The translations under genes were made by a program, and so were the position numbers. A DNA stretch of 64,000 nucleotides from an uncultured Chloroflexia bacterium. GTDB taxonomy: Bacteria; Chloroflexota; Limnocylindria; Limnocylindrales; CSP1-4. Shown here piece by piece: positions 45,261-52,526 of the stretch. The stretch lies in assembly GCA_963833225.1 (NCBI GenBank), contig CAWHXD010000019.1, positions 96,001 to 160,000 on the forward strand. The letters are read 5' to 3'. Numbering within the stretch: the stretch's first letter is position 1; every line of letters starts with the position of its first letter. A model generated the notes under the pieces. It searched no databases and was not told the origin of the DNA. It saw only the letters and a program-made list of their open reading frames with translations.

Positions 45261-48200
45261 TCAGAGGCGCATCGACGTCGTTGCTGCCGGTTCCTCTTCC
45301 GCCTCCGCCATTCCGAGCGATTGCCAGAACTCGGGGTTGCCGGACATCGCCCTGCGGGTGGTGATCGGGAACACTGCCTTGCCGGCCGCGCGGATTGCGG
45401 CGATCGTCAGACGCATCAGCCTGACTCGCTTCTCGAGGACCTCGGCGAGCGGTGTCAGGGCCGCCACGCGCGTCGCCCGGTCGTCCGCCGCCGTCCATGC
45501 CTCGCGCAGCTCCGCGATCTTCGGGTCGAGCGCCGCCTGGCCCTTGTCGTCAGTCGTCGCCTGCGCGATCCAGCTCTTTGCGATCGCGATCTGGATCTGG
45601 GCGACCTTTGAGTCCGCGCCGACCTTGAGCGCGGTGGAGCCCTTGCTGCCGATGGCGTCGCCGAGCGCCCGCGAGGAGGTTCGGATCTGCGATCGCAACG
45701 CCCCAGCCGAGACCTCTGCCGCATGGATTCGATGCTGGAGCTTCGCGGTCTCGCGGTCCGTCTTCTGCGTCGCCGGTCCGCCCTTCGCGCCGTCCGGCTG
45801 GCTCCGCATGGCAATCGCCTGCGCGTTTCGCCGGACGCGCTGGAACTCCGCGATGTGCCGGTCGATCAGCGCGAGCTGTTGCTTGCGCAGCCCGTCGGGA
45901 AGGTCCGTGTAGCGCTTCGGGTCGGCCACCGCGGCTCGCCGCTGCCGAAGCCGGACGAGCGCCGCGCCGGTTGCGCGGATGACGTCGTCGGCCTTGGGAG
46001 CCTTGGCGGTCAGGGCCTTGGCGAGGGCCCGGCGCTGGTCGCGGAGCTTCTGGCGACCCGAGGGGCCCGGGAAGTTCTCGTCGCCCTTGAGCTCGAGATC
46101 CCAGGCCTTGTTCGACATCCCGACCTGGCCGCCGAGCATCTGGGCGCCGTTCTGCTTCACGAGCTCGGCGTAGACCGTCATCTTCTCGTCGAGCGTCTTC
46201 GCCCGGCGGAGCGCTGGGTTCACTGCCTCGAGCGCGCGGATCGCCGCCATGGGCACCGGCGCGCTGAGCGTCCATTGACCGGACGGCTTGGCGTCGCTGG
46301 ACCGCGAGTCCTGGAAGATCTTGCGGAACTCGTCGCGGTTGAACGATCCCGCTTCGCCGGAGACGTTCAACACCGCCCGAGCGGCGGCCTCCTTGTCGTT
46401 CTCCTGGCTGCGGACGATCTGGGCGTTGGAGTGCTCCGCCTTGTCACCCAGGTATTTCCAGACCCTCCCCGGGTCCTGGTCGTGCGACTGCTTGCCGCCG
46501 TACTGCTCGTGCGTTCCGCTGTCGTCTTCGACCCGGTTCTGCCAGGTCGTGCCCGTCCAATCGGCCGCCCCGCCGAGCATCGCGTACTTGTCGTGGTCCT
46601 CCTGCGTGTTGAGCGTGCGCACGCTGACCCGCTTTGATCCCGTCGCAGGCGGGAGCGGGATGGCGACGAACTGCAGGAACGCGTTCGCTCCATCCTTCGA
46701 GGCCAGGTCGAAGGCGTAGGTGACCGCGAAGAGCGAGCTCTCGGAGGAGCCCTTCTCGTTCGTCAGCCCGCCGCTGATGCCCCAGTCACTGCCCTCGGAC
46801 GCGGTGATCGTGTACGTGACGTGGACGGTGCTGGTGGCGGCATGGAGGACCGACAGCTCGTGCGCGGACGTGGTCTGGCCGCTCTTGGAGATGGTGGCGC
46901 CGAACGTTCCCGAGACGCTCCCCGACTTCGTGCGGGACGATCCGATCCCGCGCGACTCGCCGATCGGGATCGCCAGCGCGCCCGGGATCGTCGTCACGGG
47001 GAAGAATCCGAGGCTGCCGTCCTTGGCGATCCGCTTGGCGGCGTTCTCCTTGAACGCCTTCGCCTCCTGCTCGCTGCCGAAGCGGCGAGACCCCGTCCTG
47101 CTGTCGGCGTCCGTGACGCTCCCGCTGGCACCGAACCCGACGCCACCGGCCTCCCCGCTGACACCGCCCCCGACCGAGCTGGTGTCGGCCACGACGAAGC
47201 GGACCTCCCAGACGCCCGGAGATACCTCCTCGGGGTCCTCGGCGGTGACGCTGTGGCCGCCGCTGACCGTGACCGACGCACCGTAGCCACCCTTGGACTT
47301 CACGCCCCCGGTCAGCGACGCAGACGAGTTGCCCTTGTCGTCGGCCGAGAAGGCCGCGCTCCCGGCGACCTCGTGACCGCCGCGCGTGCCGTAGCCCTTG
47401 CCGTACTCGCCGGCGACGCTGTGCGGGTCGACCGTCACCGAGCCCGTCGTCGCCGACGACGTCTTGACCGGGGTCCCGTCCGGCTTCGTGCCGTGCACGA
47501 CCTCGCGCTTCCGCTCGCCGCCCACCTTGAACTTTCCTTCGCCGGTGACGCCGCCCGTGACGTGCCTGGAGTCGGTCACGCCGAAGCTGTCGCCGACCTT
47601 GGTGGCCTCCGAGCGGCCGTACTGCGCGCCGACGACGTTGCCGCCGACCCCGAACCCGGCCCCGGCCATACGCTCGCGACGGTGGCTGAGCTCGCCGTCA
47701 GACGTCTCCTCGCCGGTCGTGACCATCCCGAGCTCGCGCTTGCGATCGCGCGTCGTCGTCTGGTCGCCCTGCTGGGTCACCGTCGAGGTGTAGCTCCGAC
47801 CAGCGGACGACTCGTCGTACGTCGTGCCGGGCAGCCCGACGGTCTTCGCCGCCGTCGCCGCTGCAGACGGGCCGGACGCACCGCCGGTCGGGGTCGACGG
47901 CGTCGCCGAACCGGCGGATGCCGGCCCCGCGCCGATCGGGGCGTCCGGTGGGCGTCGTGCCCCCGGTGGGCGTCGTGCCCCCCGCCGGCGAGCTACCCGC
48001 TGGCGAGCCGCCAGCGCCCCCCTGACCGGCTCCCTGCCCGTGCCCCCCGCCGCCATCCGCCGAGTGGCTCGGCAGCTCCGTGGCCGGGCCCCGGTGGTCG
48101 GGCGAGACGGCGATCTGGTTGCCGACCCGGAAGGCTTTCGGATACGAATCGCCCGTGCCCTCGTCGAGGTCGTACATCTGCTCGTGCCAGTCGTGGCTGG

Positions 48201-49167
48201 GGCTCCGGATCACCGAGGCGGGATCAGCCTGAAACGCTGCCTCGACCTCGGCGTCGGTGACCGGCCGCGCGGTGTCCCAATGCTTGGGCCGTCCGACCCG
48301 CCTGGCCGGTCGGTCGCCCGCTCCTCCACCGCGAGCCGGCGGCGCCACGGAGCCGACCGTTGCCGAGCCGGGAAGCTGGTCCTTGGGCACGATCTGGGGG
48401 GGCGGCAAGGTGGCCTGCCCGCCTGCTCCGCCCAGACCGACGTCGCCGGTGGCGGCGTACTGGGGGAGCGTCGTGGCGGGTCCCGGGTAGTCAGGGTGGA
48501 CGGCGATCTGATCACCGACGCGGAACGCCTGCGGGATGCCGCCGGTGCCCTTGTCGAGGACGTAGATCTCGTTGTGCCAGGACGTGGTCGGGCTGCGGAT
48601 CACGCTGCCCGGATTGCGCTCGAACGCTGCCGCCACATCGGCCTCGGAAACCGGCACCGCCTGATGCCGGAGCGGGGCACTGCGGTCGAACGCGGGAGCC
48701 GGGTTCCCCGTGCCCGGGACCGTGGCAGCGAGGGCGTCCGGCGTGGTGGCGGCGGGCTCGGGAGCCTGGGGCGTCGGCGCTGGCCCCGGCAGCGTGGCGC
48801 CAAGGGCCGCCGGAGACCGGTCCTTCGGGCGGTCCGGGGCACGCTGCACGGCACCGGCGACCGACGCTGATGCCCCGGCCCGGCGCACCATGCCGGGATG
48901 ACCCGCTGCGCGCGGCAATGCCCTGCCCAGGGTCGACCCGCGAAACGGCGAGGCGAAGGCGCGACCCGGCTCGTTGCGAGAACCGAGGATCAGGCCCGCG
49001 ACCGCCCGATTGCCGGCCGTACGCTGGAGTTCCAGGGCTGACTGGAGGTCAGGCGGGCCCGAACCTCGGGCAGCTGCGGCCTCGGTCGCCAGTGGGCCAA
49101 GCCCACGCTGGGCCGCACCCGGTCTTGAGCACCGCGTTATCGCAGCGCGGGACGCTTGTTCGCGCAC
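45261..49167 (-). CDS. Large (~1,300 aa) putative secreted effector/toxin, frameshift near 47945; start uncertain
   Basis: Joins ORF 47698-49386 (LELQRTAGNRAV, AVQR, duplicated ~68-aa domain) to ORF 45261-48056 (G/S/T-rich beta region, then helical basic C-terminus). Confidence 0.6.
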
Positions 49168-49428
49168 GAGAGGGAAAGTCACACGGTGGCCGCTCGCGCG
49201 GCAGCGATTCTGGGACAGACTCCGATGCAGCAACGCCTGCCCGAAACGGAACCTCGCGATGCCCGATCGGGCAACTGACCATGGGAGATTGGCGCGGTGG
49301 CGGGCGAGGTCCGGGAGAGGCACCGGGCGCCTGGGTCGACTCGCGGCCGCTGCTCGGCGGCACGCACCAGGCGCGGGAACGACCATCGGAGGCCCGCTTC
49401 GGGCTCTGGCCCGGTCACGGTGTTGTTC

Positions 49429-49436
49429 TGGCGCGC
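49429..49436 (+). repeat. Target-site duplication TGGCGCGC (left copy; right copy 52450-52457 is the tRNA 3' end)
   Basis: An identical 8-mer directly abuts both TIRs. Confidence 0.9.
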
Positions 49437-49460
49437 ATCCCTGTTGTATCTGCGTTGGAA
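49437..49460 (+). repeat. Left TIR ATCCCTGTTGTATCTGCGTTGGAA
   Basis: Exact reverse complement of 52426-52449. Confidence 0.95.
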
Positions 49461-49506
49461 GACGCCGCCGCTGGTCCGCCCGCTCGCCGGCGTCCGGTGA
49501 CGAGCG

Positions 49507-50187
49507 TCAGGCCGAGACGTCGAACGACGCCTTCCAACGCGCCCGGCTTCGCTTGGCCCGTCGCTCGAGGCGCGGAATCTGATCGGCGGGGCCGAGGCGC
49601 CGAACGATGTCCAGGAGCAGAACCGGCGAGAGGTATGGGCCAAGCGGCCAGCGATCCGGCTCCGTCATCAACACGTCCCGCACTGCCTCCTCGGACGTCA
49701 TCCGCTCGATGGTGGGAATGGCGACATCGGCGAGCCGTCGCTGCACGACGTCGGTCAGGGGTCGCAGGTCAACATCCTCACTCGAGCCAGCGCGGATGTT
49801 CCAGCCGTATGCCGGGTCGAACGCGTCGGGCGAGTCCTCCGGCGGCATCAGGTCGCTGTTGTAGAAGATCCAGATGCAGCCTTCGACGGACGGCGGCGGG
49901 GGCCGCCGTTCGTTGGTGATCTCCTCGGCCAGGCGGGCAAGTCGCTCGACGTAGACGCCTGCCTGGAGGTCGAGGAAGACGTGCTCGGCTCGGCTGTAGC
50001 GGTCCTTGCGGACCCTGATGACGCCGGTCACGCCCCCGGGTCGCTTGAGCAGGTAGGACGCTCGCGACTTCACGAAACCGCGCTGGGTCATGAACGGCGT
50101 GATCTCACTGGCGAGCCAGGCGTCGAAGATGTCGAGGGCAGATCTCACGCCGAGATGGTGAGCGCCCGGGGAGGCGCTTGTCCGCAT
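49507..50187 (-). CDS. Passenger protein, DUF4304-like (alternative GTG start at 50148)
   Basis: ITPFMTQRGFVKSRASY...VIRVRK...LQAGVY resembles the DUF4304 N-terminus (from memory, not searched). Confidence 0.55.
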   Translation of the reverse strand: MRTSASPGAHHLGVRSALDIFDAWLASEITPFMTQRGFVKSRASYLLKRPGGVTGVIRVRKDRYSRAEHVFLDLQAGVYVERLARLAEEITNERRPPPPSVEGCIWIFYNSDLMPPEDSPDAFDPAYGWNIRAGSSEDVDLRPLTDVVQRRLADVAIPTIERMTSEEAVRDVLMTEPDRWPLGPYLSPVLLLDIVRRLGPADQIPRLERRAKRSRARWKASFDVSA

Positions 50188-50208
50188 GAGCCTGCGATCT
50201 GCGAGGCG

Positions 50209-52361
50209 TCAGGACGCTGGCGGCAGGACTGCGATCTGTGCCTCGGCAGCCGCTGCGACCCGTTCTCGCCGACGCTGTGCCGCCTCCTTCGCCCTGGCTG
50301 GCTGCGCCAGGCGGTCGCACTCGGGGCAGTCCGTCATCGAGAGCGTGCGCTGGTAGACGACCGCCGGCCACTCGTGGCCGAGCGCGCACTGCCAGTAGGC
50401 GCGGTAGGCCGAAGCGCGGGTCACCTCGTCCGCGTGCTTCGTGTTCTTCTCGGCGTGCCACTCGAGCGCGAGGTGCGGGTAGTAGGCCGCCAGCGACTCC
50501 GCGGGATGGACCCGGTTGCCCATGTGGAACGGGCAGAACGAGCCGTGGTAGATCCGGTCGACGAGCTCGGTCTCCCAGACGTGGTTCTCGTTGAGCAGGC
50601 AGCGCCAGATGACGCGCCGCCGGCTGCCCGCGCTGATCGTCATCGGGTCGAGGTCGCCGTTGAAGTCGTAGTCCCACTCGAGGAGGTAGTCCTCGAACTC
50701 GTGGAGGAACCGGCCTTTCGTCGGCGTGACGACGCGCGGCCGCGGGTTCTTGGGCCGGCCCTTCGGCGGGATTGGCAGGCCGTGGAGCTGCCGCAGGTCG
50801 AGCGCCTCGTCGTAGAGACGGCGGTTGCGCTCCCGCGCCCACTCGAGGTGCTCGTCCGCCGCACGGCGCCTTGAGCGACGGTCGGACTCGAACACGAGTC
50901 GCGGGATGGACGCCTCGTCGCGGTCCTGCCAGGTCCGCCACCAGCTCATCTGCCGCCGCCTGCCTCGGTAGGTCTCCATCGGCAGCACGTTGGCCGCCGG
51001 CAGGTGTGATGCGTTCGCGTTCGCCTCGAACTGGGCGCGCACGATCTTCGCGTAACGCGCCTCCCGGGCGAGGCCGCGGCCCTTGAGCGTGATGAGGCCG
51101 AGCACGAGGTTGAGCCGGCGCGCGTTCTGCCAGCGGCCGGCCCGGCGCTTGATGGGCGCGAGCCACTCGGCGATCTTGCCCTCGAGCGAGCCCGTCGAGA
51201 GCGGGATCGGCCCGTGCTCGCGGGCGATCCGCCACTGGCGCACGATCAGCAGCTCGTTGGTGGCGACCCACGAGCGCAGGGCGAGCTTGTCGGGCGGGAC
51301 GTAGCGGGCGACCGCGTCCTTGAAGGCGGCCCACTCCTCGGGGCCGCGCTGGGCGACCTTCATCGCGGCGTAGAGCGGGTGGTCGCCCCACCGTCGAACG
51401 GTGCCACCGGTCCAGGCGACGCGTCGCTCGACCTTGATGGGCTCCTCGAGGCGGATCCGCTCGGCGATGCCGTCCTCGGCGGCCCGCTTGCGCATCAGCT
51501 CCTCGATGTGGTGGCGCGAGTGGTAGAGGATCGCCTTGGGCCACGTCTCGCGCACGGCTCGCGCGATTGCGGCGTCGAGGTCGGCGATCACCCAGGACGG
51601 TTCTCCCGAGAGCTGCGAGAAGAACGCCTTCCAGCTCTCCACGTCCTTACCGCCCGCGACCTGCATCGGCACGGGCACGGTCTTGTGGTGGGTGCCGTCC
51701 ATCGCGACGAGGATGGTGCCGGCCTTGAGGTTGCGGACGAAGCGCTCCTCGTCGGGGCTCGCGCCCGCGGCTCGCTCCGCTGCGGACGGCGGACGGTAGC
51801 CGGTCGCCATGAGGGTCGTCGAGTCGAGGATCAGGACCCGCGGCCACTCGTGCGGCATGAGCTCGGCGAGGACGGGCAGGGCGTAGGCGTCGAGGTAGTT
51901 GACCGCGAGGTTGGCCTGGCGGCTCGTGTCGCCGCGACGGATCCGCTTGAACTGCGGCTCGTCCGCCTTGCGGTTGCTGGTCTTGAGAACGTGCTCGCGC
52001 AGCTCGCAGCTCGCGTCGCGCAGGCTCATCCCCTCCCGATGTGGATGAACAGCCGGGCGAGCTCCTGGTGGCCGAACACGAAGCCGAGGCCGCAGCGCAC
52101 GCCCTCGTGGCGCTCGAACACGTGCTCGCAGTTGGCGCAGGCAGCGCCGGCGTCGGGGTGCTTGGCGGTCGGCTGCCGGACCGGGACCGGCAGCCTGAAG
52201 ACGTGGCCACGCGTGCGGATGGGCCAGACGCACCGGTAGCGCGGCCGGCGGTGGGCGGTGCTCCACCGGCAGGGCGAGAAGCCGTCGAACTGGACCCGCG
52301 TGCCTGGATGGTCCGGGCACACGGGGCGGACATCGGGCCGGTCAGGGAGGGCGAGAGTCAT
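50209..52361 (-). CDS. Mutator/IS256-like DDE transposase with N-terminal Zn ribbon and two C-terminal DUF4379-like zinc ribbons; frame break at about 52030
   Basis: D1 LILDST; D2 WVIADLDAAIARAVRETWP; YHSRHH at the C/DxxH position; E STGSLEGKI..IKRR; C-terminal EWDYDFN...VIWRC..H.W...CPFH and EWHAEKN...YWQCALGHEW...CPEC. Confidence 0.8.
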
Positions 52362-52425
52362 GTCGCGAGTCTGCCGCGGCGCTGTGCCACCTACGATGGC
52401 GCGGTGGTCCCGATCTCGCTACGGG

Positions 52426-52449
52426 TTCCAACGCAGATACAACAGGGAT
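52426..52449 (+). repeat. Right TIR TTCCAACGCAGATACAACAGGGAT
   Basis: Exact reverse complement of 49437-49460; abuts the tRNA CCA end. Confidence 0.95.

Positions 52450-52526
<77 letters not shown>

Follow-up and report, generated by a model that had tools for sequence, protein, structure and literature searches.

We followed up an insertion sequence at positions 49437..52449 of a 64,000-nucleotide stretch of DNA from an uncultured Chloroflexia bacterium (GCA_963833225.1, contig CAWHXD010000019.1, positions 96,001 to 160,000), which we call the window. All coordinates refer to the window and all its features lie on the minus strand unless stated otherwise. The element stands directly behind a tRNA-Arg gene, and it belongs to a family built to one plan: a single DDE (Asp-Asp-Glu) transposase of ~717 residues between conserved inverted ends of ~24 bp, located directly after the encoded CCA of a tRNA gene, in either orientation, and with the last 8 bp of the tRNA duplicated. 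The initial annotation of this DNA had taken a tRNA gene to be the insertion site and had suggested that zinc-ribbon modules in the transposase select it. The premise has turned out stronger than was claimed, as the whole family inserts exactly at tRNA-gene 3' ends; this family-wide rule is what is new here. We are as good as certain that tRNA-end targeting is a property of the family.

Insertion at tRNA 3' ends across the family

We analysed 107 loci, comprising 26 from species-representative genomes, 80 from metagenomes and the window. The genome loci come from metagenome-assembled genomes of Chloroflexota, Limnocylindrales, Acidimicrobiia, other Actinomycetota and a few others. Since most loci come from such assemblies and from short contigs, and kin are not independent, the counts given here describe a pattern and carry no statistical test.

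The ends of the element are conserved throughout the family, with CCTGT following the first one to three bases. A recognisable end was found in 95 of the 107 loci, giving 158 ends, 18 of which have less than 25 nt of flank and 140 of which have at least 25 nt. In this last set, 42 ends adjoin the 3' end of a tRNA called by ARAGORN, 19 adjoin a T-arm plus CCA (mostly tRNAs cut by the contig end), 53 are flanked by TGG and five bases, the reverse complement of a duplication that ends in CCA, 13 by CCA only, and 13 by other sequence. Expressed differently, 61 of the 140 ends lie directly at a tRNA 3' end and 114 at either a tRNA end or the duplicated 8-mer. In some of these last 13 the flank is a further element copy at a distance of 8 bp (L032, L052). 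In these two loci (about 1-60 and about 850-900, respectively) the copies lie end to end and the spacer is an 8-mer matching a tRNA end, as expected if an occupied tRNA end gets hit again.

The loci contain 57 called tRNAs. The 3' end is at the element end in 42, with identical spacing in 39 of these. Five of the 15 non-adjacent tRNAs are one tRNA-Val, which in L016 lies ~58 nt ahead of the gene match; the search pattern missed the element end of this subgroup. The 42 adjoining tRNAs represent 23 distinct tRNA ends and 17 anticodon classes (Ala, four Arg, Asn, Cys, Gln, Gly, Lys, three Pro, two Ser and two Val), and the orientation of the element is unbiased (31 versus 29). The consensus of the targeted flanks is the consensus of all tRNAs in the window's genome, namely the T-arm, the acceptor 3' strand and CCA; the CCA is encoded in 48 of the 54 tRNAs called in that genome.

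Among the 49 elements with two ends, 12 have a best 8-mer direct repeat without mismatch and another 12 have one with a single mismatch, compared to 9.6% and 10.9% for shuffled partners; for genome-derived loci the repeat is exact or one off in 10 of 13. The remaining two-ended elements, about half, have the flanks of two different tRNAs, which suggests chimeric assembly or recombination between copies. As the last 8 bp of the tRNA are duplicated, the targeted tRNAs remain whole across the family. The family has no conserved second gene, and the other open reading frame (ORF) of the window's element is unique to that copy.

In five loci (L015, L080, L089, L097 and L105), the element lies beside a hairpin-like piece in which ~20-28 nt of a tRNA-Arg 3' end are joined to the reverse complement of a tRNA-Arg trailer. 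These partial tRNAs without a normal T-loop hint that 17-25 bp of duplex DNA may suffice as a target; alternatively, they could be later rearrangements.

The element in the window and its empty site

The window element measures 3013 bp. It has perfect inverted repeats of 24 bp at its borders and, just outside these, a direct repeat of 8 bp. The inverted repeat on the tRNA side, which is also the side of the transposase start (52426..52449), is identical at 24 of 24 positions to the one at the distal end (49437..49460, plus strand), and the 24-mer has two matches in the window against 0.00 expected (100 shuffles). The tRNA-Arg (anticodon TCG) occupies 52450..52526 and is intact by ARAGORN, with its CCA encoded. 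The last 8 nt of the tRNA, including the CCA, form the first copy of the target-site duplication (52450..52457); the second copy, the same 8-mer, lies at 49429..49436 and is followed by the original tRNA trailer. With the element directly after the CCA and the last 8 bp of the tRNA duplicated, tRNA-Arg(TCG) has been left whole.

We located the empty site by searching relatives from the tRNA side. In two loci from the same genus (L193 and L199), the orthologous tRNA is followed without interruption by a trailer whose start resembles the DNA beyond the window's second 8-mer. A search with the distal flank matched two relatives, neither with a tRNA nearby. The window's own genome holds a single copy of the element, plus one decayed distant paralogue. 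The borders of the element consist of inverted repeats and an 8-bp duplication, and no tyrosine or serine recombinase domain was found in the element's proteins.

The transposase gene

A search of 5.8 billion proteins, in which 8000 candidates were scored, gave 219 homologue matches at E up to 0.001. Most of the homologues listed are single proteins of 700-735 aa, the best being P0002 (717 aa), and 119 of the 120 listed contain PF14311 (DUF4379). Where the listed matches carry any source annotation it is "hypothetical" or "zinc-ribbon domain-containing", never transposase.

In the window the gene is divided between two frames. The first (52026..52361, 111 aa) encodes the N-terminal Cys/His-rich region and the start of a helix-turn-helix and is 81% identical to residues 1-120 of P0002. 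The second (50209..52029, 606 aa) encodes the DDE core, a helical linker, two fingers and a C-terminal helix and is 91% identical, without gaps, to residues 109-717. The frames overlap by 4 nt at the break (52026..52038), which homologues cross uninterrupted, and one contig in each of three of four public runs (X1, X3 and X4) has one extra base behind position 52035. Judged from these sequences, either the window copy or its assembly has lost one base at the break, and the transposase in the window is probably inactive unless ribosomes slip. The length of about 715 aa given in the initial annotation is right for the two frames joined, with relatives at ~717 aa, but the window gene itself is split into 111 + 606 codons. 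We rejected a programmed -1 frameshift as a rule of the family, since the homologues are single-frame (mostly 717-735 aa) and the related contigs are one base longer; such a frameshift is described for the ISMich2 group in the main text of PMC3942029.

Positions of the sub-features (catalytic codons, linker and modules) were derived by hand, and residues are numbered as in P0002. The codon of the first catalytic Asp, D180, is at 51823..51825 and the residue is invariant in 30 of 30 aligned homologues. The second catalytic Asp is either D261 or D263 of a D-L-D motif (51574..51582), both of which are invariant in the alignment, and the catalytic Glu, E394 (51181..51183), is invariant in alignments A1 and A2.

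Classification and fold

The DDE part falls outside every curated family model. In Pfam it matches DDE_Tnp_ISL3 at 13.8 bits (cut-off 23) and MULE at 14.3 bits, both below threshold; in NCBIfam it reaches 18 bits against a required 180 for ISL3 and 16.5 against 300 for IS1249. Weak ISL3 matches occur in 17 of 30 homologues (best E 3.5e-6). Pfam Transposase_mut has no match at E up to 1 in either the window protein or P0002, and NCBIfam transpos_IS256 has none in the window protein (E up to 1) or P0002 (E up to 0.01). The proteins of a sister clade, described below, pass Transposase_mut marginally (24-25.4 bits versus 21) and stay far under the 150 bits of transpos_IS256; more distant relatives are at or barely above the Pfam thresholds for Transposase_mut or MULE. 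The ISKra4 model NF033572 has no match at E up to 0.01 in 10 superfamily proteins. A scan of the window's own genome with the same model found three other loci, and the window element was not among them. Two loci of that genome, C6:148829-149986 and C7:31422-32579, have identical scores with the ISKra4 model (147 bits, below the cut-off) and are probably two copies of another insertion sequence.

The AlphaFold model of the whole protein, built on 30 sequences, has a predicted local distance difference test score (pLDDT) of 76 and a predicted template modelling score (pTM) of 0.72. The first five ranks of a Foldseek search with it are five chains of ISCth4, an IS256-family transposase (E 2e-7 to 1e-4, template modelling (TM) score on target 0.45-0.50). 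The top match, 6xgx_A, has an E of 2.1e-7 and a TM score of 0.48 on target over 391 columns. The P-element and Hermes transposases come next. No ISL3-family entry is among the structure matches listed, such that the fold comparison cannot weigh ISL3. Because the predicted fold matches ISCth4 while the curated models stay below cut-off, we place the family in the IS256/Mutator-like superfamily. The label IS256 in the initial annotation is thus sound at the level of the superfamily, but no IS256 family model reaches its cut-off. Members of the IS256 family duplicate 8-9 bp of target; the 8-bp duplication found here is of this type, whereas the random insertion of IS256 is not seen.

The DUF4379 finger pair

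The initial annotation had recognised two similar DUF4379-like modules behind a basic linker at the C-terminus, within 50209-50760, and this description proved accurate. PF14311, which Pfam describes as a "probable treble clef zinc finger", matches the window transposase in two stretches (E 4e-28, 97.8 bits versus a cut-off of 24.5) and matches all 30 aligned homologues. Both modules fall inside the annotated interval: finger 1 at 50524..50685 (pLDDT 94 in the C-terminal model) and finger 2, the best PF14311 stretch, at 50317..50472. Each is ~55 aa long, the two resemble one another, and they lie within the last ~180 residues. The putative ligands, C588, H594, C610 and H613 in finger 1 and C659, H663, C679 and C682 in finger 2, are invariant or at least 90% conserved. 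Conservation of the fingers (0.76-0.77) is comparable to that of the catalytic core (0.71-0.83); the 10-residue piece between the fingers is the most conserved part (0.90), and the C-terminal helix the least (0.50).

When the C-terminal 183 residues are folded alone (37 sequences), the model has a pLDDT of 94.4 and a pTM of 0.74. It consists of two beta-hairpin-plus-helix modules predicted as one confident unit, followed by a long terminal helix (50230..50325; residues 680-711, or 146-178 of the C-terminal model). The linker before the fingers is basic and predicted with low confidence (pLDDT below 50 for residues 528-542). It contains an invariant Gly-Arg-Pro (50752..50760; G535, R536 and P537 in 30 of 30), which may resemble the core of an AT-hook.

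The solved relatives of the fingers, by sequence and by two structure searches, are solely DUF4379 proteins of kinetoplastid mitoribosomes: mt-SAF33 (matched by finger 2 at E 9e-5; Z 10.0, root-mean-square deviation 3.5 over 88 residues), mS66 and one large-subunit assembly factor. The copy of the Protein Data Bank that we searched has no DNA complex of this fold. DUF4379-like modules have been proposed as the DNA binders that give homing endonucleases their specificity, in passages of PMC12350094.

A sister clade with another address

A profile-free search with the DDE core only returned 318 cluster representatives at E up to 0.001, of which 149 were listed. A model of the finger module finds two modules in 56 of these 149, one in seven and more than two in none; among the listed representatives of at least 600 aa, 48 of 58 have two (counted by hand). 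In a quick tree, for which the only support is the Shimodaira-Hasegawa-like approximate likelihood ratio test (SH-aLRT), the tRNA-end clade is one group with a support of 100, and a sister group, also with 100, comprises L131, L132, L135, L108, L106 and L110. The sister proteins have both fingers; their elements end differently and duplicate 8 bp of unrelated sequence.

In L131, L132, L135 and L108, one element end has the hexamer TGTCAA on its outer side, at a distance of exactly 14 nt. A pattern search of 401 genomes gave 37 distinct sister-clade ends, and the hexamer is at the exact offset in nine, with a one-letter variant in six more; as one side of each element faces the motif, the ceiling is about half of the ends. 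A palindrome frequently follows the hexamer. These observations on the sister clade come from L131, L132, L135, L108 and L153-L182. The reverse complement of TGTCAA, TTGACA, is the -35 consensus. By analogy, the sister clade looks like the elements TnGBS, ISLre2 and ISKra4, which target positions upstream of promoters, though it has no match to the ISKra4 model.

The decayed paralogue in the window's own genome (C19:753.7-755.5 kb; L003 and L152) belongs to this sister clade. It has a Transposase_mut score of 24 bits, two DUF4379 modules and broken frames, and it has neither inverted ends nor a tRNA. The neighbouring ORF is IS110-like as judged by eye.

Fingerless representatives are scattered within fingered clades and look like losses or truncated gene calls; four fingerless relatives (L140, L142, L143 and L146) have basic tails. 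We sought the ends of L143 in 141 genomes of the family and found its own copy alone. L136, from a genome marked unpublished, supports none of our claims. In the quick tree, the tRNA clade has L126 (G432) as its closest outgroup; this 797-aa two-finger protein, with no detectable inverted ends and no tRNA nearby, may be an immobile or domesticated copy.

What reads the target

Because the element has one transposase and no conserved second gene, the target must be read by the transposase or by a host factor. We tentatively propose that the transposase carries its own reader and that this is mainly the finger pair, a reading that in our estimate falls a little short of probable. The candidate is the tandem DUF4379 unit, predicted to be rigid, on its flexible basic linker with the invariant Gly-Arg-Pro. 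It would dock on duplex DNA of the 3'-terminal 17-30 bp of the tRNA gene, that is the 3' half of the T-arm, the acceptor 3' strand and the CCA, and in doing so would place the catalytic dimer for 8-bp staggered cuts on the last 8 bp of the tRNA. Judging from the similarity to ISCth4, the element probably transposes by copy-out and paste-in via a circle. Several observations speak for the fingers as reader. They are the conspicuous addition relative to plain IS256, an element without fingers whose insertion is reported to be random (main text of PMC3942029). Both of the fingered clades that we studied are site-directed, to different addresses. Finally, the unit is strongly conserved and, in the models, rigid and tethered.

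A number of findings weigh against this proposal. The sister clade has both fingers yet stays away from tRNAs (0 of 4 ends, and no tRNA near L126, L127, L130-L132, L135 and L138), so the finger pair is insufficient for tRNA targeting and the fingers are not tRNA readers per se. Positions whose conservation differs between the tRNA and TGTCAA clades show no concentration in the two fingers (densities of 5 and 11.7 per 100 aa, compared to 13-15 for the core, with only six sister sequences), while 31 of 84 positions in the N-terminal Cys/His region are conserved in the tRNA clade alone. In promoter-targeting Mutator-like elements, the specificity motif is placed in the N-terminal part (main text of PMC3942029). 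The solved DUF4379 relatives are ribosome-bound, an RNA setting. Among the relatives we found no clean fingerless control, as the one fingerless element that we followed had a single copy. The claim that the modules read the tRNA gene therefore survives in part: a reader does lie in the sole conserved protein or in the host, but the same pair serves a clade with another address and the residue test is not specific for the fingers. Likewise, the comparison of insertion sites with and without the modules, which the initial annotation had proposed, places the fingered tRNA clade at tRNA ends as anticipated, but it also places a fingered clade elsewhere and has no usable fingerless arm.

The target could instead be read by the N-terminal Cys/His and helix-turn-helix region or by the catalytic core, with the fingers binding the element ends or subterminal DNA, or clamping target DNA non-specifically. 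This would account for fingers common to clades with different targets and for the location of most tRNA-clade-only positions (31 of 84) in the N-terminal region, and it has a parallel in TnGBS, ISLre2 and ISKra4, whose targeting motif is placed between N-terminal domains (main text of PMC3942029). The same source, however, takes the N-terminal domains of IS256-type enzymes to bind the inverted repeats, and in our family the ends vary among members whereas the target is constant. The figure of 31 of 84 is also inflated, because in alignment A2 the sister frames were cut such that ~40 residues are missing at the start, even though the model match in L131 and L132 begins as early as position 8. 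On balance we consider an N-terminal or core reader unlikely, but to be taken seriously. We regard as improbable a route in which tRNA genes are found through the tRNA transcript or an R-loop, through a folded single strand in replication, or through a host protein, and the fingers bind RNA or a partner. It would fit with the only solved DUF4379 proteins residing in mitoribosomal particles, with a target consensus that is simply that of all tRNAs in the genome, and with the RNA polymerase initiation complex having been proposed as host factor for promoter-targeting relatives (main text of PMC3942029). It sits poorly with the lack of orientation bias (31 versus 29), with the base-exact spacing in 39 of 42 tRNAs, and with copies next to incomplete tRNA 3' ends that escape ARAGORN and have no normal T-loop (L015, L080, L089, L097, L105, L029 and L068). 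Of course, there might be no targeting at all, if random insertion were followed by persistence of the harmless tRNA-end copies, or if the junctions were artefacts of repeat assembly. Many of the loci are indeed short metagenome contigs, and the two-tRNA flanks of about half the two-ended elements suggest chimeric assembly or recombination. Nonetheless, the junctions are base-identical at 17 anticodon classes, 114 of 140 ends have the tRNA end or the duplicated 8-mer, the picture is the same in long contigs of 172 kb to 298 kb, and neutral survival would permit any intergenic site; we hold this explanation to be very improbable indeed.

Other features of the window copy

The window element (3013 bp) is longer than most family members (2.2-2.4 kb) because it carries a passenger ORF of 226 aa (49507..50187, from the ORF list), which matches DUF4304 weakly (E 0.029, below the cut-off). 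The ORF has no counterpart in the other loci retrieved, nor a second copy in the window's own genome; it is therefore private cargo of the window copy rather than a component of the family. A PHROGs search of three ORFs gave nothing useful (best E 0.074). Just past the distal element end, two overlapping very large frames (931 and 562 aa; 45261-49386) have no Pfam match at E up to 0.001.

The end of tRNA-Arg(TCG) is a general hot spot for mobile DNA. In five relatives (L195, L196, L198, L201 and L197), other DNA with its own short direct repeats lies directly after the tRNA end, and in L197 the final ~17 nt of the tRNA are repeated several times in tandem behind it. The foreign end seen at this tRNA in relatives is met again in L028, L037 and L092, where it flanks family copies on their outer side.

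Novelty and meaning

Simple insertion sequences are usually regarded as loose in their choice of target, and precise addresses are known mainly from multi-protein Tn7-like elements, RNA-guided elements and integrases. In the family described here, a single polypeptide appears to locate a feature shared by tRNA genes in general and to insert harmlessly beside it, and it does so in several phyla whose members are mostly uncultured. The family is a natural example of a simple transposon with target choice as a built-in property. It suggests a likely function for one use of DUF4379, and it offers an explanation for a class of assembly breaks beside tRNA genes in metagenome bins. Together, the tRNA clade and its sister clade provide a natural comparison through which the aiming of DDE transposases can be studied. 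Going further, the superfamily might possess a compact and exchangeable two-finger DNA reader, set in one clade to the tRNA 3' end and in another to a -35-like TTGACA; we think this doubtful as matters stand. If true, exchange of the finger unit could be enough to redirect insertion; no simpler protein-only targeted transposase would then be known, and the enzyme would lend itself as a natural scaffold to bacterial tools for safe-site insertion.

A full-text literature search that covered few subscription journals found neither a DDE insertion sequence targeting tRNA 3' ends nor a description of a transposase fused to DUF4379. The words tRNA, zinc and C-terminal domain do not occur in the main text of PMC3942029. 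The family is unnamed in our sources; it may have a name in ISfinder or in the supplementary element and junction tables of PMC3942029 (2,833 junctions).

Comparison with known systems

The closest structural parallels are IS256 and ISCth4 (prokaryotic Mutator-like, p-MULT 1), with which the family shares the DDE core with a helical insertion, the 8-bp duplication and one transposase gene between inverted ends. Our proteins are ~300 residues longer, owing to the N-terminal Cys/His region and the two C-terminal DUF4379 fingers, and the family is site-specific, unlike IS256 with its reported random insertion (main text of PMC3942029). The insertion sites of TnGBS, ISLre2 and ISKra4 (p-MULT 3 and 4) lie in front of sigma-A promoters, 13-17 bp upstream of the -35 box (Guerillot et al. 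2014, main text of PMC3942029). They too are Mutator-like DDE enzymes acting at a fixed distance from a short DNA landmark, and the sister clade, with TGTCAA 14 nt from its end, behaves like them. The landmark of the window family, in contrast, is the tRNA 3' end, and there is no NCBIfam ISKra4 match.

The tRNA 3' end is also the address of islands with tyrosine or serine integrases, of prophages and of casposons, which likewise keep the tRNA whole by duplicating its 3' end. Our elements differ in having no integrase or Cas1 and in having inverted ends, an 8-bp duplication from staggered cuts and a length of 2.2-3 kb.

The initial annotation had likened the modules to TnsD of Tn7. Tn7-like elements (TnsD/TniQ, at glmS, tRNA and other sites) do share the outcome, a DDE transposition to a fixed, harmless position downstream of a conserved essential gene, and some of them target tRNA genes. 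They use several proteins, among them an ATPase and a separate selector, and their insertions have a single orientation. The architecture is where the analogy fails: the family has one protein without a separate selector, uses both orientations and serves many tRNAs instead of one site, and the ORFs of the window element (the transposase frames and the 226-aa ORF) contain no TnsA/B/C core and no TnsD/TniQ selector. For the fingers themselves, the nearest parallel is found in the DUF4379/CapR/DUF723-like arrays of homing endonucleases, where tandem treble-clef modules of ~60 aa are likewise fused to the DNA-cutting enzyme of a mobile element (passages of PMC12350094). There, three to five copies stand N-terminal to an EDxHD/Vsr-type nuclease, whereas in the window family exactly two stand C-terminal to a DDE transposase.

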